Source of the DNA: Bacteroidaceae bacterium
GTDB lineage: Bacteria > Bacillota_I > Bacilli_A > RF39 > UBA660
Assembly: GCA_963622385.1 (NCBI GenBank)
Contig: CAVFIB010000003.1
Location: 1 to 39,762 of the forward strand
Reading direction: 5' to 3'
Length of the DNA stretch: 39,762 nt
Made by a program: the position numbers and the translations under genes. The notes below the pieces were generated by a model that saw only the letters and a program-made list of their open reading frames with translations, was not told the DNA's origin and made no database searches. The first letter of the stretch is position 1. Every line of letters begins with the position of its first letter. Of the stretch, positions 11,445-29,612 are shown in pieces.

Positions 11445-11583
11445 TTTACCAACTCCTTAAACAAACTACATTATTATTATCTACAAAATAGGACAATTTA
11501 TTTTATATAAAAATTGGAAGAAAAAAATAACACATAAAGTGTAATTTTTGAATTTTATAGAACTAATTTTGTGTTTTAAAGAA

Positions 11584-14358
11584 TTAACCGTTTTTTTTAA
11601 ATGATCTGATAATTCGCCATAAATAAAGCTTTATTCCTCTATTTTTCAGTATGACAAAAGGTCTTTTTAATTTCCATAAGATACTTCTTTTTATAGGTTT
11701 ACTCTTATGGATGATATATGGATAATCTCTACTTGCATCTAGAACACTAATATAGTATCTGTATAATTTTCCAATTTCATAAATATTTTTGTTCAAGATA
11801 TCATCATCGAGAATTGTTTTTATGATGTTATTAGTACCTAATAATTGTTTGCAAGCACTTTGAGAGTGTGAATTATTATTAACATATACTTTTGTTAATG
11901 GTTTATTTATTGCTTTGAAATTATATTTTTTTGATAACTGTAGCCAAAGCGAAACATCTTCACCACTTGTTTTGGTGATATCAAATTTATTGTCCTTTAA
12001 AAGTTCACTTTTTATCATAATGGTAGGAAGTGCAATAGAACAACCTTTGATCAATTGTTTCATACATTCTCCATCATACCTAGTAGTTTTTATTTCTTTT
12101 TCTGTATCACTTTTTACTCTTATATAATTAGTATGTGAAATATAGGCTTCGGATTTTAGAATTTCTTCCAGTTGATATCTAAGTTTTTCTGCTAAAAACT
12201 CATCATCTGAATCTAAAAAGGCTATATATTCTCCAGTTGCATTATCAATACCGATATTTCTTGCATATGATACACCTTTATTCTTACCCAGTTTAATATA
12301 TTTAATTTTGTTTTTGTTTTTACTGCGTTTGATATATTTTTCAACTATACTAATATCATCTGTTGAACCATCATTAACTAAAATCAGTTCCCAATTTTTA
12401 TGAGTTTGACTTTCAACTGATTTTATTGCTCTTATAACAAGGTCTTTTCTATTATAGAATGGAATTATTACGGAAATTTTAATTTTATCTAGTTTTTTTG
12501 TCACTTGTTTTTCTATATATTCGATAGCCTCTTTATATGGTGTTTCTCTAAAAGAGGATAAAAATTTCTCATCAAAAGCTAGTTCACTATTTTCATATTC
12601 TTCTTTTAATTTTTTAGGAATTTCATTAAATATTTTTATCCACAGTTCATTACATTCTGGTAAAGTTTTAGGATTTGAATTTGTGTCCTGTTCAGGGTGA
12701 ATGCGATATTTAGCTAAAATTTTATCTATGTGATAAAATTTATATTTGTACAAAATATTATTCCAATAATGATAATCTTGTGTTGTTCTATATCGAGTTT
12801 CAAATAATCCATTTTCATCAAAGACTTTTTTAGGTATTAAAAGTGTTATCCCATTAATATTGCGATTAATTAAAGAATATTTATCTTTTTCAATTAAGAC
12901 TCTATGGTTTCTTATAATGCTTTTATATACTTTATCATTTTCATCCATAAGATGATTGTCAGAGTAAAGTACAATATTTTTTTCTTTTTCCTTAGAGAGG
13001 AATTTTATTTGATCTTCTATTTTTGTTGGATAATAGTAATCGTCATGAGAGAGCCAAGAAAAATACTCACCTTTCATATTTTTTATAGCAACATTTAAAG
13101 CAGTAGCAACACCACCATTTTCTTTTTTAAAATATCTTATTTTACTACCATAAGATTTTGCTATTTCATCTGTTTTTCCTTCATCATCGCTTCCGTCGTT
13201 CACTACTATTATCTCCAAGTTTTTATATGTTTGAGCAAGAGCGCTATCTATTGAGGTTTTTATATAGTTTGAACCATTATAAACGGGAATTACAATACTG
13301 ACTAAAGGGTTAAAAGTTTGTTTTTCTTTACATTTGGGCTCGTATTTATTTATAAACTTTTCTACTGATTCACTTAAATTATCATAATTTTGATAATTAA
13401 AATTTGAATTATCAAAATAATAAGTATGGTAAATAGTATGTTTGTATATTTCAAAAATATTTTTATTTATTTTTTCTAATTCGTTTTTAAAATAAGTTAC
13501 AAAACTTTTTTTGTCATCTTCATTTGTTAACTTTTCATATGAAGAAAAGAAAAAATTCAAGCAGTTATTGTAGAAAAATATTCTAGAAAATTCATCATTT
13601 TTATAATAGAAATATTCAAGTGTATCTCTAATAGAATTAATAGTGTCAAAATAGTTTTCTATTTTTTTACATTGAGATATTTGGTTTTCAGTATTTAATC
13701 TATAATATTTGTAGAGGTTAGGAATATAGATTATTTTTTTAGCCTCACAGATAATAGGAAGAATTTTCATTAAATCATTAGCATGAGTACCTTTATAAGA
13801 AAATTTAGAAAATAATTTTCTTTTTATTATTTTTGTACTGCTAGAGGCACAGGCCCAATGGCCCATTAAAATTTTATTGTTTATTTCATAAGGCTTACTT
13901 TCAAATGAGTTTATATCCATTGTAGAAACGTAAATATTATCGTTATAAATTGAGGATTTAATAATATTATTTTCATCAAAATATTTAGCAATATCTGAAA
14001 TAACAATATCTGCATTTGTTTTCAAAGCTTGATATAACATTTTTTTGTAATACTTATTATCTACAAAATCATCAGCACTTTGAACTCCAATGTAAACACC
14101 CTTAGATTTTTTTATTCCTTTTTGGATTGAAGGCCCTGACCCAAGTCTTTCCTCGTTTTTGATAATTTTTATTATTTTTTTAAATTTCTTTTTTCCTTTT
14201 ATGAAACTATAGACTTTTTCTAATGATTTATCAATAGAACAGTCATCTATAATAATTATTTCAACATTTGTACCTATTTTTTTTGTTACAGATTCTAGGC
14301 ATTTTGTGATATATTTTTCTTCATTATACATTGGAATTATAATGCTTAAATCTTTCAT
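11584..14358 (-). CDS. Giant glycosyltransferase with three GT2 (GT-A) modules and a basic amphipathic C-terminal tail
   Basis: Module 1 (aa 1 to about 230) has LSIIIPMYNEE, IIIDDCSIDKS and QSADD. Module 2 (about 351-570) has VSIVIPVYNG, VVNDGSDD, NGGVATALN and SHDD. Module 3 (about 627-830) has ISVIIPFYNR, VNDGSTDD, NKGVSYARN, LDSDD and GEDVSLW. The tail is SILWKLKRPFVILKNRGIKLYLWRIIRSFKK. Confidence 0.85.
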   Translation of the reverse strand: MKDLSIIIPMYNEEKYITKCLESVTKKIGTNVEIIIIDDCSIDKSLEKVYSFIKGKKKFKKIIKIIKNEERLGSGPSIQKGIKKSKGVYIGVQSADDFVDNKYYKKMLYQALKTNADIVISDIAKYFDENNIIKSSIYNDNIYVSTMDINSFESKPYEINNKILMGHWACASSSTKIIKRKLFSKFSYKGTHANDLMKILPIICEAKKIIYIPNLYKYYRLNTENQISQCKKIENYFDTINSIRDTLEYFYYKNDEFSRIFFYNNCLNFFFSSYEKLTNEDDKKSFVTYFKNELEKINKNIFEIYKHTIYHTYYFDNSNFNYQNYDNLSESVEKFINKYEPKCKEKQTFNPLVSIVIPVYNGSNYIKTSIDSALAQTYKNLEIIVVNDGSDDEGKTDEIAKSYGSKIRYFKKENGGVATALNVAIKNMKGEYFSWLSHDDYYYPTKIEDQIKFLSKEKEKNIVLYSDNHLMDENDKVYKSIIRNHRVLIEKDKYSLINRNINGITLLIPKKVFDENGLFETRYRTTQDYHYWNNILYKYKFYHIDKILAKYRIHPEQDTNSNPKTLPECNELWIKIFNEIPKKLKEEYENSELAFDEKFLSSFRETPYKEAIEYIEKQVTKKLDKIKISVIIPFYNRKDLVIRAIKSVESQTHKNWELILVNDGSTDDISIVEKYIKRSKNKNKIKYIKLGKNKGVSYARNIGIDNATGEYIAFLDSDDEFLAEKLRYQLEEILKSEAYISHTNYIRVKSDTEKEIKTTRYDGECMKQLIKGCSIALPTIMIKSELLKDNKFDITKTSGEDVSLWLQLSKKYNFKAINKPLTKVYVNNNSHSQSACKQLLGTNNIIKTILDDDILNKNIYEIGKLYRYYISVLDASRDYPYIIHKSKPIKRSILWKLKRPFVILKNRGIKLYLWRIIRSFKKNG

Positions 14359-14437
14359 CTTATTACTCCTGACTTTTAAAAATTTTATAGTTTTACAAAG
14401 CTAATATTAGTTAAATAATATATTGTTAAAATATTTT

Positions 14438-15544
14438 TTACTTTTTCCACACATTTCTATTAATATAGTGAGTATAACTCAATATTATATTGACTACAGT
14501 TTGTGAAACATTATTTTTATTGTAATCCTCTACAATTGCAGGTCTACTTTTTCTACCAGTTACGACATTAATAGAATCAATAATATTTTCTAGCTCTAGA
14601 CCACTCATTACTAATGTTCCGTTGTCCATTCCTTCTGGTCTTTCGTGGGCTTGTCTTATTGTAATCGCAGCATATCCCATTAATGAAGCTTCCTCTGTTA
14701 TTGTTCCACTATCAGATATGACGCAAAATGACTCTTTTTGTAGCTTATTATAATCAATAAAACCAAGTGGTTTCATATATTTGACTAAACTATTAAATTT
14801 AAAGTTTAATTCTTCTATCTTTTTTTGTGTTCTAGGATGAACACTGAAAACTATAGGCATTTTGTATTTTTCACATATTCCATTGATAGATTCTAATAAA
14901 TCTCTAAAATTCTTAGGATTATCAACATTTTCTTCACGATGAGCACTTAAAACAAAATATTTTCCTTTTTCTAACTTTAATTTATCTAAAATTTTGCTTT
15001 TCTCTATTTCATTTTCAAATTCTTTGTAAACTTCTTTCATACTAGAACCGATTTTAAAAATAGTTTCTGGTTTGATGCCTTCATCCAAAAGATATCTTCT
15101 TGCATGTTCTGTAATTGTCATATTTATATCACTTAAATGATCTACTATTTTTCTATTTACTTCTTCTGGAACACGGCAATCAAAACATCTATTACCAGCT
15201 TCCATGTGAAAAATTGGTACCTTATTCTTTTTAGCAGATATTATGGATAAACACGAATTTGTATCTCCATATAGTAAAATAGCATCAGGCTTCTCTTTCT
15301 TTATTATTTTATCTGAAAGAGAAATAATGTTGCCTATTGTTTCTGCGGTAGTAGAACCTACTGCATCTAAATAATAATCAGGTTCTCTTAGGTTTAAGTC
15401 TTCAAAAAAAATCTTATTTAATTCATAATCGTAGTTTTGTCCGGTATGAACTAAGACATGCTCTGTGAATTTATCTAATTCTTTTATGGTACAGGATAAT
15501 TTTATAATTTCTGGTCTTGTACCAACGATTGTCATTACTTTCAT
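14438..15544 (-). CDS. UDP-2-acetamido-2,6-dideoxy-L-hexose 2-epimerase (CapG/FnlC/WbvD-like, WecB family)
   Basis: Strong similarity to S. aureus Cap5G as I recall it: MTIVGTRPEIIKL, VHTGQNYDY, GDTNSCLS, FHMEAGNRCFD, VPEEVNRKIVDH and SAHREEN. Confidence 0.85.
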   Translation of the reverse strand: MKVMTIVGTRPEIIKLSCTIKELDKFTEHVLVHTGQNYDYELNKIFFEDLNLREPDYYLDAVGSTTAETIGNIISLSDKIIKKEKPDAILLYGDTNSCLSIISAKKNKVPIFHMEAGNRCFDCRVPEEVNRKIVDHLSDINMTITEHARRYLLDEGIKPETIFKIGSSMKEVYKEFENEIEKSKILDKLKLEKGKYFVLSAHREENVDNPKNFRDLLESINGICEKYKMPIVFSVHPRTQKKIEELNFKFNSLVKYMKPLGFIDYNKLQKESFCVISDSGTITEEASLMGYAAITIRQAHERPEGMDNGTLVMSGLELENIIDSINVVTGRKSRPAIVEDYNKNNVSQTVVNIILSYTHYINRNVWKK

Positions 15545-15599
15545 TTATATTCTCCTTTTTCTATCTATATTTTTAATTGTTTGATAGGTACTAATATTT

Positions 15600-16625
15600 T
15601 TATTCTATATCACCCATTTTTTCTAGTAATTTTACAGTTTCATCAATATTGAGTCTTTTTGTTGTTTCTGATGTATAAGATTCATATTTTATTATTTCAC
15701 CAGTACCTTTTTTATAAAAATCGTTATAATTTAATCCTCTATCATCCATTGGAATTCTGTAGAAATTATCTAAATCTTCAGCCCTAGACATTTCTTCTCT
15801 AGTAACTAAAACTTCGTGTTTTTTTTCTCCGTGTCTTGTTCCTATTATTTTTACTTGGCATTCTTTATTTTTATATTTCATTATAGCTTGTGCCAAAGTT
15901 TCAATTGTAGCAGCAGGTGCTTTTTGAACAAATAAATCACCTTGTTTACCATTTTCAAAAGCAAATATTACTAGGTCAACTGCTTCACTTAATGTCATCA
16001 TGTATCTGGTCATGCTAGGATCGGTAATTGTTAGTGGTTTGTTTTCTTTGATTAGTTTATAGAAAAGTGGTATTACTGATCCTCTTGAGCCCATTACATT
16101 TCCATATCTAGTAAGACATATTGTTGTATTAGAATCGTTACCTAATTCTCTTGCTTTTGCTACGATTATTTTTTCCATCATAGCTTTGCTTGTGCCCATG
16201 GCGTTTATAGGGTATGCAGCTTTGTCAGTGGATAAGCATATTATTTTTTTTACCCCGTTTTCAATAGCGGCGGTAAGAACGTTATTTGTTCCAATTATAT
16301 TTGTTTTTACTGCCTCCATTGGAAAAAATTCACAAGATGGTACTTGTTTTAAAGCGGCAGCATGGAAAACATAATCTACTCCTTTCATAACAGGATTAAG
16401 AGTGTTTATGTCACGAACATCTCCAATATAAAACTTAATTTTATCTGTATTATATTTTTTTCTCATATCATCTTGCTTCTTTTCGTCACGAGAAAAAATC
16501 CTTATTTCTTTTAATTCTGAATTTAAAAATTTTTCTAAAACTTTGTTACCAAAAGATCCTGTTCCTCCTGTGATTAAAAGAACTTTATCCTTAAACATAG
16601 ATTTATTTAGTGATTGGTTACTCAT
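15600..16625 (-). CDS. UDP-GlcNAc 4,6-dehydratase/5(3)-epimerase, CapE/FnlA/WbvB family (copy 1)
   Basis: Near-collinear similarity to Cap5E as I recall it: LLITGGTGSFGN, IRIFSRDEKKQDD, FYIGDVRD, FHAAALKQVPSCEFFP, CLSTDKAAYPINAMG.SKAMMEK, RYGNVMGSRGSVIPLF and IGTRHGEKK. An AGGAGG RBS lies before the ATG at 16625. Confidence 0.9.
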   Translation of the reverse strand: MSNQSLNKSMFKDKVLLITGGTGSFGNKVLEKFLNSELKEIRIFSRDEKKQDDMRKKYNTDKIKFYIGDVRDINTLNPVMKGVDYVFHAAALKQVPSCEFFPMEAVKTNIIGTNNVLTAAIENGVKKIICLSTDKAAYPINAMGTSKAMMEKIIVAKARELGNDSNTTICLTRYGNVMGSRGSVIPLFYKLIKENKPLTITDPSMTRYMMTLSEAVDLVIFAFENGKQGDLFVQKAPAATIETLAQAIMKYKNKECQVKIIGTRHGEKKHEVLVTREEMSRAEDLDNFYRIPMDDRGLNYNDFYKKGTGEIIKYESYTSETTKRLNIDETVKLLEKMGDIE

Positions 16626-16890
16626 AAATTTCCTCCTAAGTAAAAAACTTTAATTTCTGCGTTTTCCCCTCTTTTATTCTAAATCCATTATACAGGAAAA
16701 AATCTTATTTGTCAGCTTTTTTGTCTTTTTTTATTGCTCTTTTGATAGAAGTTTAATAAAATCAACTAAAAATAAGTGAGCTTTTTTGAGATGGTATAGT
16801 TCCAATTGTTGGAGATAGTATAAAGTAAAAGCTTTGTACAATTTATTATATTGAGGATTTGATTACAGTACTTTAATAAAAAATATAGAC

Positions 16891-16922
16891 AAAAAACAAA
16901 AAAGCATTAATTTTGCTTTTTT
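16891..16922 (-). terminator. Rho-independent terminator of module 2 (stop codon in the loop)
   Basis: The minus strand reads AAAAAAGCA-AAATTAA-TGCTTTTTT followed by GTTTTTTG. The hairpin spans the TAA at 16907-16909. Confidence 0.6.
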
Positions 16923-19642
16923 GAATTAATAAACATATGTATAGAAAGAATAATTCCTCTATTTTTTATGTTTAGTAAATTTCTTTTTAATCTCCATATA
17001 ATGCTTTTTTTATTTTTAGAATTATCTATATTACAAATTGGTTTATATTTTAAACTTTTGTCTAATAGATCTATATATTTTTTGTATAAAATACCGACTT
17101 CGTAATAGTTTTTTCTAAGGGTTTCGTCATTAGTTACTAGGTTAATTATAGTATCTAGTTCTTCCAACTTTTCAGTGTTTTTTTGATTTTTACTACTCTT
17201 TTCTGTCTTTGTTAAGGTATTATTGATTGCTAGGAAACTATATTTTTTTGATAAATTAATATATAATAATATATCATTTTGGCAACATTTTTCTTCTATA
17301 AATGCTTCTTTTTTAATCATTACTGTTGATAAGTTTATATAACAGTTTTTTATTAGTTCTTTAGAGCATTTTCCATTAAAAATACTGGTATTTACTTCGT
17401 TTACAGTATTTTCACTTATGATGTTATAATGTGTGTGAGATATTACCCTGTCGTCTCTTAGCATTTCTGTTAGTTGAATTAATAGTTTATCTTTATGAAA
17501 TGTGCTTTTAGAATCTAAAAATGATATATAATCTCCGGTTATATCTTTTATGCATTGAAGAGTTAGTTCTTGTTTGCTTTGAGGTTCTTTAAATTTGAAA
17601 TATTTTATTATTTTATTGCTTTTGATGTATTCTAAAATTTTGGTATTGTCTTCGATGCAATTATTATCTATTAAAATTAATTCCCAATTATTAAAACTTT
17701 GCAGTTCTACTGATTTGATTGATTGTATTGTTTTTTCTATATCATCGTTACAAAAAAGAATCACAGATATTTTAAATTTTTCAAGTTCATTTTTAACTTG
17801 TTTTTCTATATATTTGATGGCTCCATCATAGTTTGTTTTTCTAATATGAGTTTGAAAACTAATATCAAATTTTAAATTTGTATCTCTATATTTTTCTTTT
17901 ATTTCTTTTGGAATGTCTTCATATATTTTTATCCATAGTTTGTTGCATTCTGGTAAGGTATTTTTGTTTTTTTGCGTATCTTGATTTTCATGAACTCTAT
18001 ATTTTGCTAGAGGTTTATCTACATGATAAAATTTATATTTATATAAAATTTTATTCCAATATTCATAGTCTTGAGTTGTTTTATATTTTGTTTCAAATAA
18101 ACCGTTTTCATCAAAGACTTTTTTTGGTATTAAAAGGGTTATACCATTTATGTTTCCATTTATTACGGAGTATTTATCTTGTTTTATTAAGGCTCGGTGC
18201 CAGCGTATGGAACTTCTATAAACAATACCATCTTTATCCATTACATCGTTATCTGAATATAAAACTATATTTTTGTTTTTTTCTTTTGATAGATATTTTA
18301 TTTGATCTTCAATTTTTGTTTTATAATATATATCATCGTGAGAGAGCCAAGAAAAGTATTCTCCTTTCATATTTTTTATAGCGATATTAAGCGCTGATGC
18401 AACTCCCCCATTTTTCTTTTTTATGTATCTTATCTTGTCTTTATAGGACTTTATTATTTCATCTGTTTTATCAGCACTTCCGTCGTTAACTACTATTATT
18501 TCTATATTTTTATATGTTTGGTTAAGTGCACTATCTATGGCTTCTTTAACATAGTTTTCTCCATTATAGACAGGGATTATTATACTGACTAAGGGATTAA
18601 ATATTTCATTTTCTTTTTTTGAGTGATAGTTTTCTATAAAGTATTTAGTGCTTATGATTAGATTATCATAATTTTTATAATTAAAGTTCGAATTATCAAA
18701 AAAATATGAATGGTATAAGGAGTGTTTATATACTTCCAGTAAATCTTTACTTATCTTTTCTAGACCGTTTCTAAAATAACTTGTAAATTCTATTTTTTCT
18801 TCTTCTTTTTCTAGGTTTTCAAATGATGTAAAGAAAAATGTCAAGCAATTATTATAGAAAAATATTCTTGAAAATTCTTCATTGTTTTTATAAAAATATT
18901 TCATTGTTTCTATTACAGAATCTAAAGTTCCTAAGTATGAATCTAGGGTCTTACAAGAGGATAATTGTGTTTGGGGATGCATTCTGTAGTATTTAAATAA
19001 ATTAGGGATATATATTATTTTTTGTGATTCTTCGATGATTGGTAAGATAGCCATTAAGTCGTTTGCATGTTTTCCTTTGTAAGGATGTTTTTGTAATAGT
19101 TCTTTTTTTATTATTTTGTTTGAACTAGAAGCACAAGCCCAATGTCCCATTAAAACTTGTTTTTTAAGCTCGTGAATAGAATCTGTGTTTTTTTCTATGC
19201 TCATGGTGCTGGTATAGATATTATCTTCATAAATGGAAGCTTTTTTTATTTTTTTATCATTATGATAAATTGCAATATCTGATACTACAATATCCGCATT
19301 TGTTTTTAAAGCTTGGTATAGCATTTTTTTATAGAAGTTTTTATCTACAAAATCATCAGAACTTTGTACTCCAATATAGGTTCCTCTAGCTTTACTAATT
19401 CCTTTTTCTAAAGTTTTAGGGCATCCTAAATTTTCTTTATTTTTGAAAATTCTTATTAATTTTTTATATTTTTTGTTTTTATTTTTCCATTTTCTTGCTT
19501 TAGATAGGGACTCATCAGTAGAACAGTCATCTATTACTATTATTTCTACATTGCCTTTTATTCCTTTTGTGATACTATTTAAACACTTCTCTATATATTT
19601 CTCATGATTATACATTGGAATTACTATGCTTAGATCTTTCAT
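16907..19642 (-). CDS. Giant glycosyltransferase, paralogue of 11584..14358: two intact GT2 modules plus a degenerate third module
   Basis: It is collinear with the 924-aa protein. Modules 1 and 2 keep their motifs (VIDDCSTDES, QSSDD; VVNDGSADK, NGGVASALN, SHDD). Module 3 (aa about 623-812) reads ILFCNDD, IDNNCIED, EPQSKQELTLQ, LDSKS and QNDILLY in place of the nucleotide-binding, DxD and catalytic-base motifs. Confidence 0.85.
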   Translation of the reverse strand: MKDLSIVIPMYNHEKYIEKCLNSITKGIKGNVEIIVIDDCSTDESLSKARKWKNKNKKYKKLIRIFKNKENLGCPKTLEKGISKARGTYIGVQSSDDFVDKNFYKKMLYQALKTNADIVVSDIAIYHNDKKIKKASIYEDNIYTSTMSIEKNTDSIHELKKQVLMGHWACASSSNKIIKKELLQKHPYKGKHANDLMAILPIIEESQKIIYIPNLFKYYRMHPQTQLSSCKTLDSYLGTLDSVIETMKYFYKNNEEFSRIFFYNNCLTFFFTSFENLEKEEEKIEFTSYFRNGLEKISKDLLEVYKHSLYHSYFFDNSNFNYKNYDNLIISTKYFIENYHSKKENEIFNPLVSIIIPVYNGENYVKEAIDSALNQTYKNIEIIVVNDGSADKTDEIIKSYKDKIRYIKKKNGGVASALNIAIKNMKGEYFSWLSHDDIYYKTKIEDQIKYLSKEKNKNIVLYSDNDVMDKDGIVYRSSIRWHRALIKQDKYSVINGNINGITLLIPKKVFDENGLFETKYKTTQDYEYWNKILYKYKFYHVDKPLAKYRVHENQDTQKNKNTLPECNKLWIKIYEDIPKEIKEKYRDTNLKFDISFQTHIRKTNYDGAIKYIEKQVKNELEKFKISVILFCNDDIEKTIQSIKSVELQSFNNWELILIDNNCIEDNTKILEYIKSNKIIKYFKFKEPQSKQELTLQCIKDITGDYISFLDSKSTFHKDKLLIQLTEMLRDDRVISHTHYNIISENTVNEVNTSIFNGKCSKELIKNCYINLSTVMIKKEAFIEEKCCQNDILLYINLSKKYSFLAINNTLTKTEKSSKNQKNTEKLEELDTIINLVTNDETLRKNYYEVGILYKKYIDLLDKSLKYKPICNIDNSKNKKSIIWRLKRNLLNIKNRGIILSIHMFINSKKQN

Positions 19643-19643
19643 C

Positions 19644-20462
19644 TTATTCCTCCTTATTTAAAAGCATCCATTTATGCATTTCTTTTACCATAACTTCATA
19701 TGATGGAATTTTAAAATTATAGGTACTAGTATTTATGAAGCTTTTATCACATGTAACGTCATTAAAAGGAATAATATCAATGTCTTTGTTAAATTCTTTT
19801 TTAAATAAATTAAGTAAATCATACTTACTTATTTTTTTATTATTAGTAACATGATATAAACCATTTAAATCATCTAGAATTGCTTTTTCTATACATTTAG
19901 ATAATTCTAAGGTTGTTACTCCAGACCAAAAAACATTCTTATAACCATTCACACTTTTACTACTTTCCATGAACCATTTGAATAATCCTATTCCATTTTT
20001 ATTGTTATCTGGTCCAATTATGGAAGTTCTTAAAGTTAAATTATAATCATTGTTTATTTCTCCTAGTGATTTGGTCATTCCATAAAAACTTTTTGCATCT
20101 TTTATGTCATTTTCTTTATAGGATCCCTTTGTGCCTTCGAAAACACAATCAGTTGAAATGTGAATAAATTTGATATTTCTTTTTTTACATAGTTCATCCA
20201 TATAATGAGGAAAATAACTATTTATAAAAATAGCATTTTTTTTATTGTCTTCAGCATTTTTGTTTAAAATTCCTATGCAATTTATTATATGAGTTGGTTT
20301 AAAGTCTTTGATAATAGTGTTTATTTTATCTATTTCTAAAGCATCATAGATATAATCACCTTTTTTTCTATCTGTTCCTTTTACTATATATCCTTTATTA
20401 TTAAGGTAATTCTTGACTACATGTCCAAGCATTCCTTTTTCTCCGATTACTAATATTTTCAT
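19644..20462 (-). CDS. RmlD-like SDR 4-reductase (WbvR-like, UDP-6-deoxy-4-keto-L-HexNAc reductase candidate)
   Basis: The Rossmann motif is KILVIGEKGMLG. A YxxxK is present (FYGMTKSLGE). At 272 aa it has the size and shape of dTDP-4-dehydrorhamnose-reductase-type enzymes, not the roughly 370-aa CapF/FnlB type. It is packed between the dehydratase and the GT with 1-nt gaps. Confidence 0.7.
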   Translation of the reverse strand: MKILVIGEKGMLGHVVKNYLNNKGYIVKGTDRKKGDYIYDALEIDKINTIIKDFKPTHIINCIGILNKNAEDNKKNAIFINSYFPHYMDELCKKRNIKFIHISTDCVFEGTKGSYKENDIKDAKSFYGMTKSLGEINNDYNLTLRTSIIGPDNNKNGIGLFKWFMESSKSVNGYKNVFWSGVTTLELSKCIEKAILDDLNGLYHVTNNKKISKYDLLNLFKKEFNKDIDIIPFNDVTCDKSFINTSTYNFKIPSYEVMVKEMHKWMLLNKEE

Positions 20463-20463
20463 T

Positions 20464-21456
20464 TTAATTCTCCATTTTTTTTAACAATTCTATAACTTCA
20501 TCTACATTAAGTAATTTTGTGTTTTTTGAAGTGTATGCTTTATGCTCTTTTATTTTACTGTTACCATTTTTATAAAAATTGTTATAGTTTAAGTTTCTGT
20601 TATCCATGGGAATTCTGTAAAAATGTCCCATGTCTTCTGCTCTTGAGATTTCTTCTGCGGTTACTAAAACTTCATGTTTTTTTTCTCCGTGTCTTGTTCC
20701 TATTATTTTGGTGCCAACTTTACTGTTTTTATATTTTAATATAGCTTTTGCTAGAGTGTCAATTGTCGCAGCTGGGGCTTTTTGGACGAATAGATCACCT
20801 TGTTTACCATTTTCAAATGCAAATAGAACTAAATCTACTGCATCTTTTAAGGTCATCATATATCTTGTCATGTTAGGATCAGTGATGGTTAAAACTTTTT
20901 TATTTTCTACTAATTCATAAAATAATGGAATAACAGAACCACGTGATCCCATGACGTTTCCATATCTGGTTAGACAAATAATGGTTTTTGATTCATTACC
21001 TAGTTCTCTTGCTTTAGAGACTGCTATTTTTTCCATCATGGCTTTACTTATTCCCATGGCATTTATAGGATATGCAGCCTTATCTGTACTTAAACATATT
21101 ATTTTTTCTACATTATTTTCAATTGCTACACTTAAAACGTTATCAGTTCCTAAAACGTTAGTTTTAACTGCTTCTATAGGGAAAAACTCACAAGATGGTA
21201 CTTGTTTTAAAGCAGCGGCATGGAATATGTAGTTAACACCTTTCATGACGCTATTTAAAGAGGATTTATCTCTAACGTCTCCTATATAGAATTTTAATTT
21301 ATCAGAATTATATTGTTTTCTTAAATCGTCTTGTTTTTTTTCATCTCTTGAGAATATTCTTATTTCTTTTATATCAGAATTTAAAAATTTTTTTAGAACT
21401 TCGTTTCCAAAGGAGCCAGTTCCTCCGGTTATTAATAATATTTTATCTTTGAACAT
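20464..21456 (-). CDS. UDP-GlcNAc 4,6-dehydratase/5(3)-epimerase, CapE/FnlA/WbvB family (copy 2)
   Basis: It carries the same motif set as copy 1 and, by eye, is roughly four-fifths identical to it at protein level. AAGGAGGG is an upstream RBS. Confidence 0.9.
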   Translation of the reverse strand: MFKDKILLITGGTGSFGNEVLKKFLNSDIKEIRIFSRDEKKQDDLRKQYNSDKLKFYIGDVRDKSSLNSVMKGVNYIFHAAALKQVPSCEFFPIEAVKTNVLGTDNVLSVAIENNVEKIICLSTDKAAYPINAMGISKAMMEKIAVSKARELGNESKTIICLTRYGNVMGSRGSVIPLFYELVENKKVLTITDPNMTRYMMTLKDAVDLVLFAFENGKQGDLFVQKAPAATIDTLAKAILKYKNSKVGTKIIGTRHGEKKHEVLVTAEEISRAEDMGHFYRIPMDNRNLNYNNFYKNGNSKIKEHKAYTSKNTKLLNVDEVIELLKKMEN

Positions 21457-21476
21457 TTTCTACCCTCCTTATATTA

Positions 21477-21504
21477 AGTATATCACGGATGATACAAATA
21501 TCAA
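21477..21504 (-). promoter_or_regulatory. Putative sigma-A promoter of module 2
   Basis: On the minus strand the -35 is TTGATA (21504-21499), the spacer is 16 nt, and the extended -10 is TGATATACT (-10 at 21482-21477). It lies just downstream of the strong terminator and about 20 nt upstream of the start codon. Confidence 0.45.
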
Positions 21505-21505
21505 C

Positions 21506-21532
21506 AAAAAAAACCTTAATATATAAGGTTTT
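21506..21532 (-). terminator. Strong rho-independent terminator ending the long nusB-to-GT893 transcription unit
   Basis: The minus strand reads AAAACCTTA-TATAT-TAAGGTTTT (9-bp stem) and runs into a U8 tract. It starts 1 nt after the TAA at 21534-21536. Confidence 0.8.
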
Positions 21533-21533
21533 C

Positions 21534-24215
21534 TTAGTTTTTATGGGTTTTATCGTACTCCATAAGAGCTTTATATGCTCTTTCGCAGTTTTTATTGTCT
21601 TTATGATAGAAGAATTCATCACATCTTTTTATGTATTTGTCTTCCATTTTACAATCATTTTTAATTACTTTTATAATGTTATCTATAGTTTCGTCATAAC
21701 TTTTACAGTTTGGACCAAATCCATTTTTATCGTAATTAAAGTATCCTGGATTATAATAATGTGTTTCAAAAATAGTATCAAAGTCAAAATTGGCATATAC
21801 TACTGGTTTTCTTAAATAAGCAAAATCACAGGCTGATGATGAGTAATCAGTAACAATGAATTTAGATACTTTTGTTTCATATTGAGAATCAACGTCAATT
21901 GCTATATCAACATATTCGTTGCCTTTAAAATCATCAAATTGAGCTCTGAAACTTGGATGAATACAAAATTTTATTTTTAAATTATGCTCTTTGAGTACTT
22001 TTTGTAATTTTTTATCGTTGAATAATTTATCGTAAAATTTAAAGTAATCACTTTGAGTGAATTCTTCGTTATATTCTCTTCTTTGAGTTCCTGGAATAGT
22101 AGGTCCTGCGAGTTTTGATCTCCAGCTTGGCATAAATAAGATTTGATTTTTTTCATTTTCTTTTAGAAAAAGGTTATCGTGACGAGGTAAACCACTTTTT
22201 ATTAGTTGTTCTTCTTTAAAATAATATTCGCCTTCTAAAATGCTTTTGCATTCTAAAGGACTTGTAACAACGTTTAAAGTAAAGTCTTTATTTATTCTGT
22301 TAAGCCAAGAAGAGGAGTCGTGAAGTAAAATTCCGTGTGTTAAATAAATATATTTGAAACTATATAAATCTACGAAGAAGGATCTTTCTGCTCCAAAAGC
22401 ATTATTAATGTAACCATCTGCATGGGATGAGATGAGATACTTAGCATTTAAAAAGAATAGTTTATATTTAAATGTATGATATTTTATGACTTTACCATAT
22501 TTTTTAATTCTTTTATAGTCTTCGTATCTTTTATCGATTACAAAATAACAATGTCTATTATCTGTGTTTTCTTGTGATAATGTATACTTATATAGAGCTT
22601 CTGCGTTATCTCTACCCATAAATTCTCGATCGCAGAATAACCAAATATTCTTAGGCATAAAAGGTTTAGTAATGAAATAAATAAACCTAGTAAAGACTAT
22701 TCTTATAAGAGATAAAAATTTTAATTTTCTATTTTTTTTCTTATAATATAATATTCCAAACCAGTATCTTAGTTCTTTTTTGATTCTTCCTAGTTTATTT
22801 GGTTTTTTTGTTATATTAAGTTTACTTTTTCCTTTTGTAATCATGAAATCGTCGTGGATGTAATAACTTTTAGAAATATTGCTTATACGAGAATGTTTGA
22901 TATAGGTATTGGTTACTTGATAATATTTGTTATTATACTTGAAATAAAATTCTAAAACGTCATTCTTTTTAAGAGGTATTTCAAGGGAATAGCCTTCTTT
23001 TTTTATTGTGTACTTATCAGAAAAAGAAGTATTAAATTTTGTTCTTGGATAAGTATTTATTTTTATGTAATCTTTTGAGTTTTTTAACTTATAAAATAGT
23101 TTTATGTCATTTGATAAATGTGTTATTCTACCATCGATATAAAGAGTATTCTTATCTATTTTTAGGATTTCAATAGTATTTCTTATACCTGATATTTTAC
23201 ATAGATTAGCATTGTTTACAAATGCCTTTTCGTCTTTGAAAGTTACGTTTATATTGCCTTTATTTTTTATTAATAAAGTAAGCATTTTGTAATATGTTTT
23301 TATATTTTTTTGGTCAAGAATAACTTCGTCTTCGACATAAGTTAATAGTTTTTCGATTAGTTCTACATATTCTTTTTGTTCTTTTTCCTCTAAAACATCA
23401 GTAATACCAAGTCTTATCTTCCATTGCAGATCATACATGATGAAATATTGTAGAAATTGTGGTACTTTTCCTAATTTTTTTTCATATATTTTGATTAATT
23501 CAAGTTGACAATTTTTTAAAGTATCAAGATACCATTCTTTTTTTAAATGTGATGTTTGTATAGCAGATGTTTCTTCCATTCTTCTTCTGTAGTTGTATAA
23601 AGCATCAGATATAATACCATATTTTTGTTTATCTACTAGTATTTGATAAATAACTTTGGTATCTTCGCTTATTTTTAAATTAGTGTCAAAAGGGCTATTC
23701 CATAGCTTATTTTTTCTAATAATACAGGTTGGAATGTGAAGTACTATTCCACTTGGTTCTTCTTTTAAATCAATTATTCTATTTCCTGTAAATTTATAAT
23801 CTAAGTGATGATATGTGGTGAATTTTTCGAAGAATTTAATTCTAAAGGCTACTAGGTCAATTGAAGGGTTTTCGTCAAGCATCTTAATACCTTTTTTATA
23901 AGCGTTTTTATCCCAAATGTCATCACCGTCAAAGAAGTTTATATATTCTCCATGTGCTAGTTTAAATCCAAGATTTCTTGCTGAGGATACTCCGCCATTT
24001 TTTTTCTTTTTATATACTATGTTATTTGGATATTTTTCTAGGTATTTTTTACAAATTTTTTCGGAATCATCTGGAGAACCATCATTAATTAGGATAAGTT
24101 CTATGTTTTCTTCGAATCCTATTGACTGTCTGATAACACTTTTTATTGCATCTTCAAGATAATCTTCAACGTTATATATTGGTATAATTGTTGTGATTTT
24201 ATAGTTTTTTTTCAT
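21534..24215 (-). CDS. Bifunctional GT2 glycosyltransferase / TagF-like (Glyphos_transf) polyol-phosphate transferase
   Basis: The N-terminal GT2 shows TTIIPIYNVEDYL, LINDGSPDDS, NGGVSSARN, FDGDD and SEDTKV. A middle region of about 240 aa is beta-rich. The C-terminal roughly 410 aa have TagB/TagF-type features (IWLFCDRE, RDNAEALY, SHADG, TLNVVTS, PRHD, MPSWR, VTDYSS). The architecture resembles B. subtilis GgaB. Confidence 0.85.
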   Translation of the reverse strand: MKKNYKITTIIPIYNVEDYLEDAIKSVIRQSIGFEENIELILINDGSPDDSEKICKKYLEKYPNNIVYKKKKNGGVSSARNLGFKLAHGEYINFFDGDDIWDKNAYKKGIKMLDENPSIDLVAFRIKFFEKFTTYHHLDYKFTGNRIIDLKEEPSGIVLHIPTCIIRKNKLWNSPFDTNLKISEDTKVIYQILVDKQKYGIISDALYNYRRRMEETSAIQTSHLKKEWYLDTLKNCQLELIKIYEKKLGKVPQFLQYFIMYDLQWKIRLGITDVLEEKEQKEYVELIEKLLTYVEDEVILDQKNIKTYYKMLTLLIKNKGNINVTFKDEKAFVNNANLCKISGIRNTIEILKIDKNTLYIDGRITHLSNDIKLFYKLKNSKDYIKINTYPRTKFNTSFSDKYTIKKEGYSLEIPLKKNDVLEFYFKYNNKYYQVTNTYIKHSRISNISKSYYIHDDFMITKGKSKLNITKKPNKLGRIKKELRYWFGILYYKKKNRKLKFLSLIRIVFTRFIYFITKPFMPKNIWLFCDREFMGRDNAEALYKYTLSQENTDNRHCYFVIDKRYEDYKRIKKYGKVIKYHTFKYKLFFLNAKYLISSHADGYINNAFGAERSFFVDLYSFKYIYLTHGILLHDSSSWLNRINKDFTLNVVTSPLECKSILEGEYYFKEEQLIKSGLPRHDNLFLKENEKNQILFMPSWRSKLAGPTIPGTQRREYNEEFTQSDYFKFYDKLFNDKKLQKVLKEHNLKIKFCIHPSFRAQFDDFKGNEYVDIAIDVDSQYETKVSKFIVTDYSSSACDFAYLRKPVVYANFDFDTIFETHYYNPGYFNYDKNGFGPNCKSYDETIDNIIKVIKNDCKMEDKYIKRCDEFFYHKDNKNCERAYKALMEYDKTHKN

Positions 24216-24233
24216 AAAGACTTTCCCCCTTTT

Positions 24234-25253
24234 TTAAATTTTCCATTTCATAATTGTTTTGTAATCATTGTTAGCACTTGCTTCAAATGCTTTTGTTATG
24301 TCTTTTACATCGTTTACTATTATTTCTTCGGAAATTATATTTGTTAAATAATCTACTGCATCTTTATTATTTTCTAAAAAGTCTATAGAGGCTTTGAAAT
24401 CTTCATAAGAACTTCTGCTGTTTCCTATTAAGGTAAGGCCTTTTTCTAAGACCATGCGTGTATTTATTGGTACATTGTTTTCATTTACTCCGAGTAGTGC
24501 TATTGTTCCTTGGGGGTTAATTATATCTATTATTTGATTTATTGCATTTTCTGATTTAGGACCACCAACACATTCGAAAGCGTGATCTACTCTTAAGTCT
24601 TCTGGTACTTCATTAACTAAATAAGTTTCATCTACGAAGGGTAAATAGTTTAGTTTGGTCTCGTCTGCATCAAATGCTACTATTTTAGCATCTTTGTAAG
24701 CATATTTTAAGATGAGTGCTGTACAAAGACCAACGTTACCGCATCCCCATACACCAAGGGTTAATTTGTTTTTATGACTATAATTTTTAAAATGATCAAG
24801 TGCATTCATTGAAACGCTTAAAAGTTCTAGGAGTACTGCGACTCTATCGGGTATTTTTTTATATTCTATGACTCTGTTTCTTGAAATGCAGACAAAGGAT
24901 TGCATAAAACCATCAATACCACTAGATTTGAATTTACTGCTTCTTAAATAGTTTTCTTTTATTACATCACTTTTTTCTACTGGGGTATTAGGAATCATAA
25001 CTACTTTTGTTCCTTTTTTGTAAAGACCTTTTGGATCGTATATAACCTCTCCTACTGCTTCGTGTATTAAAGCCATTGGAAGTTTTTTTCTTAGTATTTC
25101 TGGTTTTCTAAGTCCAAAAAAATATCTTTTATCTGCAGCACAAATGGATAAGTAAGTTGGTCTAACGATTATATCATCATCGTGTAAGTTTTCTTCAACT
25201 ATGTCTATTCTTATTTGTTTGGGAGAAGATAATCTATAAGAATGATTAAGCAT
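24234..25253 (-). CDS. tarJ: Ribulose-5-phosphate reductase (ribitol-5-phosphate dehydrogenase)
   Basis: It is collinear with S. aureus TarJ as I recall it: IVRPTYLSICAADKRYF, KLPMALIHEAVGEV, KGTKVVMIPNTP, FECVGG and VLEKGLTLIGNSRS. Confidence 0.88.
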   Translation of the reverse strand: MLNHSYRLSSPKQIRIDIVEENLHDDDIIVRPTYLSICAADKRYFFGLRKPEILRKKLPMALIHEAVGEVIYDPKGLYKKGTKVVMIPNTPVEKSDVIKENYLRSSKFKSSGIDGFMQSFVCISRNRVIEYKKIPDRVAVLLELLSVSMNALDHFKNYSHKNKLTLGVWGCGNVGLCTALILKYAYKDAKIVAFDADETKLNYLPFVDETYLVNEVPEDLRVDHAFECVGGPKSENAINQIIDIINPQGTIALLGVNENNVPINTRMVLEKGLTLIGNSRSSYEDFKASIDFLENNKDAVDYLTNIISEEIIVNDVKDITKAFEASANNDYKTIMKWKI

Positions 25254-29255: not shown

Positions 29256-29612
29256 ATTAATTATACCATTGGTAAACGTAATGGTTACCCAACCTTTCTA
29301 TCAGTTCTTCTTTTTTTATATTATTACATACTATAGACCTAATAAGAACTCAGATAATTCTTTTGCCTTGAAGTTAAAATAAATATCAGTTATTCTTCTT
29401 GCTATAGTTAAATGTTACAAGGTACTAGCCATAAATTAGACACCTCTCTAGTAATTATTATATCATACTATTGACGTAAAACAAAATTTTTACTTTATTA
29501 TACCTTGTTTTTTGTAGTAATTACCTAGTTTTTTGTTACGTTGTCCTCCAAAAACTTGTATTATATTAACTCCTGATGAGTTGTTGGCTTCAATTACAGA
29601 GAAACTACTATA

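Follow-up and report, generated by a model that had tools for sequence, protein, structure and literature searches.

Two paralogous modules in a wall-glycopolymer locus of an uncultured gut Bacilli lineage likely encode a UDP-L-RhaNAc/UDP-L-QuiNAc pathway only together

Two paralogous gene modules lie side by side in the locus studied here, each with its own dehydratase and its own very large glycosyltransferase, which raises the question of why the gene between these two differs from one module to the other. The window, that is, the whole stretch of DNA analyzed, is a complete 39.8-kb contig (CAVFIB010000003.1) of a 1.06-Mb metagenome-assembled genome (MAG), which is 94% complete and has a G+C content of about 26%. 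On its minus strand, module 2 (16907-21456) encodes, in order, a dehydratase (D2; 20464-21456; 330 aa; Polysacc_synt_2), a reductase (R; 19644-20462; 272 aa; RmlD_sub_bind, PF04321), and a triple-GT2 glycosyltransferase (GT911; 16907-19642). Module 3 (11584-16625), on the same strand, encodes a second dehydratase (D3; 15600-16625; 341 aa; Polysacc_synt_2), a 2-epimerase (E; 14438-15544; 368 aa; Epimerase_2), and a second triple-GT2 protein (GT924; 11584-14358). Both triple-GT2 proteins, which are named by their lengths, contain three Glycos_transf_2 stretches according to Pfam.

The explanation that we consider likely is that a split pathway to the uridine diphosphate (UDP) derivatives of N-acetyl-L-rhamnosamine (L-RhaNAc) and N-acetyl-L-quinovosamine (L-QuiNAc) is encoded only by the two modules together, within the 3' part of a wall-glycopolymer locus of the ATP-binding cassette (ABC) transporter (TagGH) type in a ~1-Mb genome of uncultured gut Bacilli. 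In this pathway, either D2 or D3 would convert UDP-N-acetylglucosamine (UDP-GlcNAc) to a 4-keto-6-deoxy-L intermediate, the single R of module 2 would reduce this intermediate to UDP-L-RhaNAc, and the single E of module 3 would convert part of the UDP-L-RhaNAc to UDP-L-QuiNAc. The contiguous D-R-E cassette is known; what is new here is its duplicated, reciprocally pruned arrangement, together with the exact breakpoints.

Two modules, one reductase and one epimerase

An earlier note on this DNA, made from the sequence alone, had described two three-gene modules with paralogous dehydratases and giant glycosyltransferases, and had observed that module 3 lacks its own reductase and that the CapF/FnlB type of reductase is absent. 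All of this was borne out. The six open reading frames (ORFs) are present on the minus strand, with their domains confirmed by Pfam and NCBIfam, and pairwise alignment gave 78% protein and 76.7% DNA identity for D2 and D3, and 57-58% protein identity, with 70% DNA identity over 2.5 kb, for GT911 and GT924. R adjoins D2, and E lies 4.1 kb downstream of R. No second RmlD-like gene and no CapF-type reductase gene were found in the genome, and R shows no match to the CapF-type protein WbjC. Contigs of two further MAGs, 99.3% and 98.9% identical to the window, and several metagenome contigs have the same gene order and junctions. An assembly chimera of two strain alleles was ruled out, because independent MAG contigs that have diverged by 0.7-1.1% share this order and these junctions.

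Predicted functions of the dehydratases, reductase, and epimerase

The dehydratases resemble CapE rather than PseB, the alternative that the earlier note had named. D2 matches the Staphylococcus aureus CapE structures 3VVB and 4J2O with 459 and 458 bits, versus 236 bits for PseB/FlaA1 (2GN4), and the FnlA hidden Markov model (HMM) TIGR04130 scores D2 at 511 and D3 at 507 bits, versus 321 and 328 bits with the PseB model. CapE is distinguished by a Met-x3-Lys motif where other short-chain dehydrogenases/reductases (SDRs) have Tyr-x3-Lys. The stretch YPINAMGISKAMMEK of D2, which carries this motif (AMGISK), is identical to CapE in the alignment, and the catalytic motif of D3 is likewise intact (AMGTSK). 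By score and motif, D2 and D3 are assigned to the CapE/FnlA/WbvB-type UDP-GlcNAc 4,6-dehydratase/epimerases.

The Pfam model PF04321 covers residues 1-227 of R, which has no CapF C-terminal domain, and the Thr/Tyr/Lys triad (T104, Y127, and K131) is invariant in 13 homologues. The anchor for R is provided by the Escherichia coli O181 and A31 O-antigen clusters, which were found by their DNA similarity to D2. Both encode a dehydratase, an "RmlD family" reductase, and a WecB-type epimerase, whereas the O145 cluster encodes FnlA, WbjC, and an epimerase. Full-length alignment gives R 35-36% identity with the reductases of O181 and A31 (35% for O181, E 1e-51); D shares 64% and E 55% identity with the O181 counterparts. 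The O181 O-antigen contains L-QuiNAc (PMC4380953), a review of E. coli O-antigens assigns QnlA and QnlB to the L-QuiNAc route (PMC7685785), and UDP-L-QuiNAc is stated to have been made in vitro by WbvB, WbvR, and WbvD (PMC6765297). Thus, R is predicted to be a short RmlD-fold SDR of the QnlA/WbvR group that acts as a C-4 reductase to UDP-L-RhaNAc. R as an authentic RmlD was ruled out by its score with the RmlD model TIGR01214 (94 bits versus a cut-off of 224) and by the lack of any RmlC-family gene in the genome.

E scores 467 bits with CapG (7YA2) and 468 bits with the Rickettsia bellii enzyme (4HWG), versus 160 with Cap5P, 135 with MnaA, and 103 with E. coli WecB. It is therefore predicted to be a CapG/FnlC/WbvD-type 2-epimerase that interconverts UDP-L-RhaNAc and UDP-L-QuiNAc. 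A different role, in which E would be an ordinary MnaA/WecB enzyme supplying UDP-N-acetylmannosamine (UDP-ManNAc) to a teichoic-acid linkage unit and unconnected with 6-deoxy-L-sugars, would agree with the teichoic-acid-like locus and with a score of 245 bits on the generic wecB model TIGR00236 (cut-off 210). This role is extremely unlikely: the structure matches favor the CapG clade by a wide measure, an orthologue of E lies between the reductase and glycosyltransferase genes of a sister species, and the genome has no match to TagA, the ManNAc transferase (WecG family, PF03808). The structure scores and the absence of TagA led us to reject E as an MnaA for ManNAc. These three assignments support the correspondence, proposed earlier, to WbvB/WbvR/WbvD (FnlA/QnlA/QnlB), the enzymes of UDP-L-RhaNAc and UDP-L-QuiNAc synthesis.

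The D-R-E cassette in other genomes

A scan of species-representative genomes for homologues of R returned 80 loci, distributed among the Saccharibacteria, Bacillota, Bacteroidota, Campylobacterota, and Pseudomonadota. In 69 of these, homologues of D and of E are both encoded within 6 kb of the R homologue, and in none of the 80 does a CapF-type gene stand beside it. The closest cassettes have the order D-R-E followed by multi-GT2 genes, and usually adjoin genes for TagH/TagG-like transporters. Consistent with this linkage, the claim that one pathway is split between the two modules is supported both by the 69 loci and by the contiguous D-R-E-GT unit of the sister species described below.

In its three enzyme types the locus resembles the WbvB/R/D cluster of Vibrio cholerae O37, equivalent to FnlA/QnlA/QnlB of E. 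coli, and the sister species keeps the D-R-E order. Unlike such clusters, the window has two D genes, one R gene, and one E gene, split over two modules that resemble separate transcription units. Each module ends in a triple-GT2 gene, and the context is a Gram-positive TagGH-type locus rather than an O-antigen cluster with Wzx/Wzy and the GT4 enzyme WbuB. The D and E clades are shared with the UDP-N-acetyl-L-fucosamine (UDP-L-FucNAc) enzymes CapE/F/G of S. aureus, WbjB/C/D of Pseudomonas aeruginosa, and FnlA/B/C of E. coli; R, however, is not of the ~370-aa CapF/WbjC type found in these pathways.

Two further arrangements were seen. Loci of Bacillaceae and Paenibacillus (L051-L053, L061, L064, L069, L073, L074, L078, L084, L088, L092, L093, and L099) have the order E-D-R, with R homologues 43-48%, dehydratases about 44%, and epimerases about 43% identical to those of the window; they represent a distinct cassette sub-type, which may have another sugar as its product. 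Another genome of the same genus, G004, carries an FnlA-like, CapF/WbjC-like, and FnlC-like trio (L017:14353-17802) at another locus, where many further genes are present. Its CapF/WbjC-like protein has 399 aa and is 40% identical to E. coli WbjC. The trio corresponds to an L-FucNAc-type route, and thus the genus uses both types of reductase.

Comparison with a sister species that has a single module

Whether related strains carry one module or two had been left by the earlier note as a point to check. Near-identical contigs share the two-module layout, and a sister species (G008) has one. G008, a member of the same genus, shows synteny with the window throughout the contig, at 88-95% DNA identity. 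Its single contiguous module, D-R-E-GT921, occupies the same site and is followed by spoIVB. In this module D is 97% identical to D2, R is 94% identical to the R of the window, and the triple-GT2 protein GT921 is 91% identical to GT911 and 56% identical to GT924. Its E is 74% identical to the E of the window.

A 1.1-kb epimerase gene thus lies between the R and GT genes of G008; no such gene is present there in the window, where the ATG of GT911 is found one base 3' of the R stop codon. The window matches the R/E junction of G008 up to the sequence ATGAAAG and the E/GT junction of G008 from ATGAAAG onward. By these alignments, the loss of E from module 2 is a precise start-codon-to-start-codon deletion at a 7-nt microhomology. 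The other difference from G008 is an additional segment of 5,370 bp (11528-16897, minus strand) that comprises a 282-bp spacer, D3, E, GT924, and a weak hairpin with a T-run. Its left edge lies in the T-run after the GT911 hairpin, with 16898 as the last shared base, and the breakpoint alignments place its right end at a T-run as well. A search for remnants of a second R or E, in the spacers and over the whole of 11-22 kb, gave nothing above noise.

History of the two modules

Maximum-likelihood (ML) trees place D3 as sister to D2 plus the D of G008, with a Shimodaira-Hasegawa-like approximate likelihood ratio test (SH-aLRT) value of 91, and the E of the window as sister to that of G008 (SH-aLRT 99). 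Synonymous divergence (dS) is 1.3-1.7 between the paralogues and about 0.3 between orthologues of the window and G008, with ratios of nonsynonymous to synonymous divergence (dN/dS) of 0.09-0.23; the ratio for D3 versus D2 is 0.088. Taken together, the trees and the synonymous divergence indicate that both modules are copies of a single D-R-E-GT unit, old and closely related. They would have arisen either by duplication within the lineage, in which case G008 would have lost the second module afterwards, or through import from a close relative that has not been sampled.

By either path, two diverged D-R-E-GT copies would have come to lie in tandem, after which copy A (now module 2) would have lost E through the start-to-start deletion. 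Copy B (now module 3) would lack R, and each copy would have kept its own promoter-like region. The loss of E from copy A appears to postdate the split between the window and G008. The duplicate dehydratase, for which the earlier note had no explanation, can be read from the comparison with the D-R-E-GT unit of the sister species as what remained after a whole module had been duplicated or imported and the copies had then lost genes reciprocally.

The GT924 cluster consists of three proteins, each from this lineage, and every one of the 11 contigs that encode the GT911-type protein P0122 has one module only. When strains were compared across 14408-24626, all 76 differences of L107 and 91 of the 97 of L108 lay at or above position 18842. 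Among strains, D3 and E are invariant, and the spacer and the 3' two-thirds of GT911 are identical or nearly so. Because this block of low diversity starts at 18842, the recombination breakpoint lies inside GT911 and not at a module edge. Strain polymorphism had been considered as a sign that module 3 was imported recently; this idea was dropped, since a block that starts inside GT911 is a recombination mosaic and is silent on origin.

The triple-GT2 proteins and the dependence between modules

GT911 and GT924 are not equivalent. All three GT2 domains of GT924 have intact NDGS and DxD-type motifs, whereas the third GT2 domain of GT911 (17207-17776) lacks catalytic motifs: IIPFYNR of GT924 is replaced by ILFCNDD, VNDGSTDD by IDNNCIED, and DSDDE by DSKST. 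The third domain of GT921 is degenerate in the same manner, and thus the degeneration predates the split between the window and the sister species. Purifying selection on this domain of GT911 persists, with a dN/dS of 0.20 versus 0.07-0.14 in domains 1 and 2.

The closest relatives of GT924 are GT911 and GT921 (57% identity). The next protein that aligns over most of its length is P0123, at 32%, and hits of higher identity (up to ~50%) cover only 50-63% of GT924. The commonest form of the family consists of double-GT2 proteins of ~600 aa, and the best structural match of the GT924 middle domain is the chondroitin polymerase K4CP, a weak match of 76 bits to one domain. From the K4CP match, the double-GT2 form, and the neighboring ABC transporter, a cytoplasmic, polymerase-like action of these proteins is plausible, if unproven. 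GT911, with two competent GT2 domains, and GT924, with three, would then be cytoplasmic multi-domain transferases, probably polymerase-like, that build chains or side chains containing L-sugars for export with a ribitol-phosphate polymer. They share tandem GT-A/GT2 domains in one soluble polypeptide with K4CP and the bifunctional GT2-GT2 heparosan synthases of Pasteurella, and differ from such polymerases in an added third GT2 domain, active-looking in GT924 and degenerate in GT911. The multi-GT2, polymerase-like family, which is uncharacterized, occurs commonly in Saccharibacteria and in MAGs of gut Firmicutes as well.

The earlier note had proposed that only module 3 depends on its neighbor and that each glycosyltransferase is supplied with one sugar. 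Neither idea fared well. The GT911 orthologue of G008 stands behind a full D-R-E set, and the same order is found in other phyla, which suggests that both glycosyltransferases evolved with UDP-L-QuiNAc available. Thus, the dependence is probably mutual, with module 2 needing the E of module 3 and module 3 needing the R of module 2.

For the assignment of one sugar to each protein we found no evidence. Were it correct, module 2 would be self-sufficient, with GT911 using UDP-L-RhaNAc; module 3 alone would be dependent, with GT924 using UDP-L-QuiNAc; and the loss of E would have been adaptive. Module 2 does encode exactly the two enzymes needed for UDP-L-RhaNAc, and the two glycosyltransferases have diverged to 57% identity and differ in their number of intact catalytic domains. 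We nevertheless regard this partition as unlikely, because the 91%-identical orthologue of GT911 directly follows D-R-E in the sister species, because the GT911 lineage evolved with E present, as the D-R-E and multi-GT2 cassettes of other phyla indicate, and because E is in the same cell, where both nucleotide sugars reach both glycosyltransferases whatever the gene order. A variant in which reciprocal pruning first locked the modules into obligate cooperation and also partitioned their products, so that GT911 takes L-RhaNAc and GT924 takes L-QuiNAc, seems to us quite unlikely; if it were true, one split pathway would feed two distinct wall polymers in a ratio set by two independent promoters.

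Under the split pathway with mutual dependence, the locus offers a clean, breakpoint-resolved natural case in which duplicated biosynthetic operons lose complementary genes and grow interdependent. A gut Bacilli lineage with a reduced genome would also be seen to have an L-RhaNAc/L-QuiNAc pathway within its wall-polymer locus, beside multi-GT2 enzymes. The value of the case lies mainly in annotation and evolution rather than in mechanism, as the enzymology is expected, the organism is uncultured, and the rearrangement is a fairly ordinary one of a known cassette.

Points that weigh against the split pathway

Several observations weigh against the split pathway and have to be set beside the evidence for it. 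The genome-wide absences rest on a 94%-complete MAG and are hence unproven, and the functions of the enzymes and the glycan of this uncultured organism are predictions from sequence. D2 and D3 fall below the NCBIfam cut-off for the FnlA equivalog (511 and 507 versus 730 bits). PGAP gives even the dehydratase of E. coli O181, from an L-QuiNAc cluster, no name beyond "polysaccharide biosynthesis protein"; thus, the TIGR04130 cut-off appears to mark an L-FucNAc subgroup, and the scores file D2 and D3 in the broader clade only. Identity to the E. coli references (64-66% for D and 52-55% for E) is the same for the L-QuiNAc and L-FucNAc routes. Trees or identities of D and E were therefore set aside as a test of the product, and the type of reductase is the sole discriminator of the route. 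The C-4 stereochemistry assigned to R is in turn predicted from its family, the closest reductase with a known sugar being 35% identical.

These same figures are what would favor a short reductase with a stereochemistry unlike that of WbvR/QnlA, in which case the products would be the L-talo/L-galacto pair (UDP-N-acetyl-L-pneumosamine, UDP-L-PneNAc, and UDP-L-FucNAc) or another C-4 epimer: R is distant from the O181 reductase, and D and E are as similar to the FnlA and FnlC of E. coli O145 as they are to the O181 enzymes. This outcome is very unlikely in our judgment. R has no similarity to WbjC/CapF and the genome has no gene of that type, R homologues in different phyla are found together with D and E but not with CapF, and the one chemically anchored reductase of this type that was examined, that of O181, goes with L-QuiNAc.

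The history reconstructed for the split pathway meets objections as well. Neither a genome with both modules complete nor a donor of module 3 was found among those searched, and duplication followed by loss is therefore not separable from the import of an already pruned cassette. In addition, the one-module lineage keeps the ancestral order and is probably not a working reference, since its D gene has been frameshifted twice independently: G008 (L015/L004), L118, and L119 (6067-7058) have lost 1 nt from an A4 run at nt 138, and L117 (6068-7058) has lost 2 nt at nt 486-487. These frameshifts point to decay or to on/off switching of the L-sugar pathway in the sister species.

If such decay extended to the window, the rearrangements would be the neutral wreckage of a pathway that is being lost, with one or both modules non-functional. 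Besides the frameshifts, the degenerate third domain of GT911 and the absence of the cassette from most genomes of the genus agree with this possibility, to which we give little credence. All six genes are intact in three strains, with a between-strain dN/dS of 0.09-0.15 in module 2; the catalytic motifs of D2, D3, R, and GT924 are intact; and the deletion of E preserved the coupling of R to GT911.

Genomic setting and non-coding elements

Every gene from 8 to 36 kb of the window is on the minus strand. In the order of transcription, three ATP-grasp genes are followed by a GT2 gene, a TagF-like gene, a 203-aa ORF, TagG- and TagH-like ABC transporter genes, TarI- and TarJ-like genes, a gene for an 893-aa GT2-TagF fusion, module 2, module 3, and spoIVB. 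Despite the presence of TagGH, TarIJ, and TagF-like genes, no TagA gene was found and the genome has only one gene of the PF00953 (MraY/TagO) family, which departs from the classical TagO-TagA-TagB linkage unit; this gene content leaves the priming step and the linkage unit of the wall polymer unaccounted for.

The modules had also been thought to have an upstream non-coding region and a terminator-like hairpin each, and for the hairpins this holds in part. A strong terminator-like hairpin with a U8 tract (21503-21539, minus strand; -15.8 kcal/mol, z -4.52) lies upstream of module 2, where it overlaps the stop codon of the GT2-TagF gene, and a moderate one with a T-run marks the end of GT911 (16897-16923, minus strand; -9.4 kcal/mol, z -2.85). 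The weak hairpin and T-run 3' of GT924 are no better than shuffled sequence (z -1.05). Promoter-like sequences precede both dehydratase genes on the minus strand: TTGATA-16-TATACT with a TG extension 5' of D2 (21477-21504), which also has an AAGGAGG ribosome-binding site, and CTGACA-17-TATAAT in the 282-bp spacer ahead of D3 (16687-16715). Promoter-like hexamers occur across the region at the frequency expected by chance.

Farther upstream, a 357-bp spacer (29256-29612) had been called odd in the first inspection of the sequence. The sister species has 1.75 kb more DNA at this exact place, with two ORFs (315 and 305 aa) that have no confident Pfam match, one of them faintly similar to Zn phospholipase C. 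Thus, the spacer is the site of an insertion or deletion.

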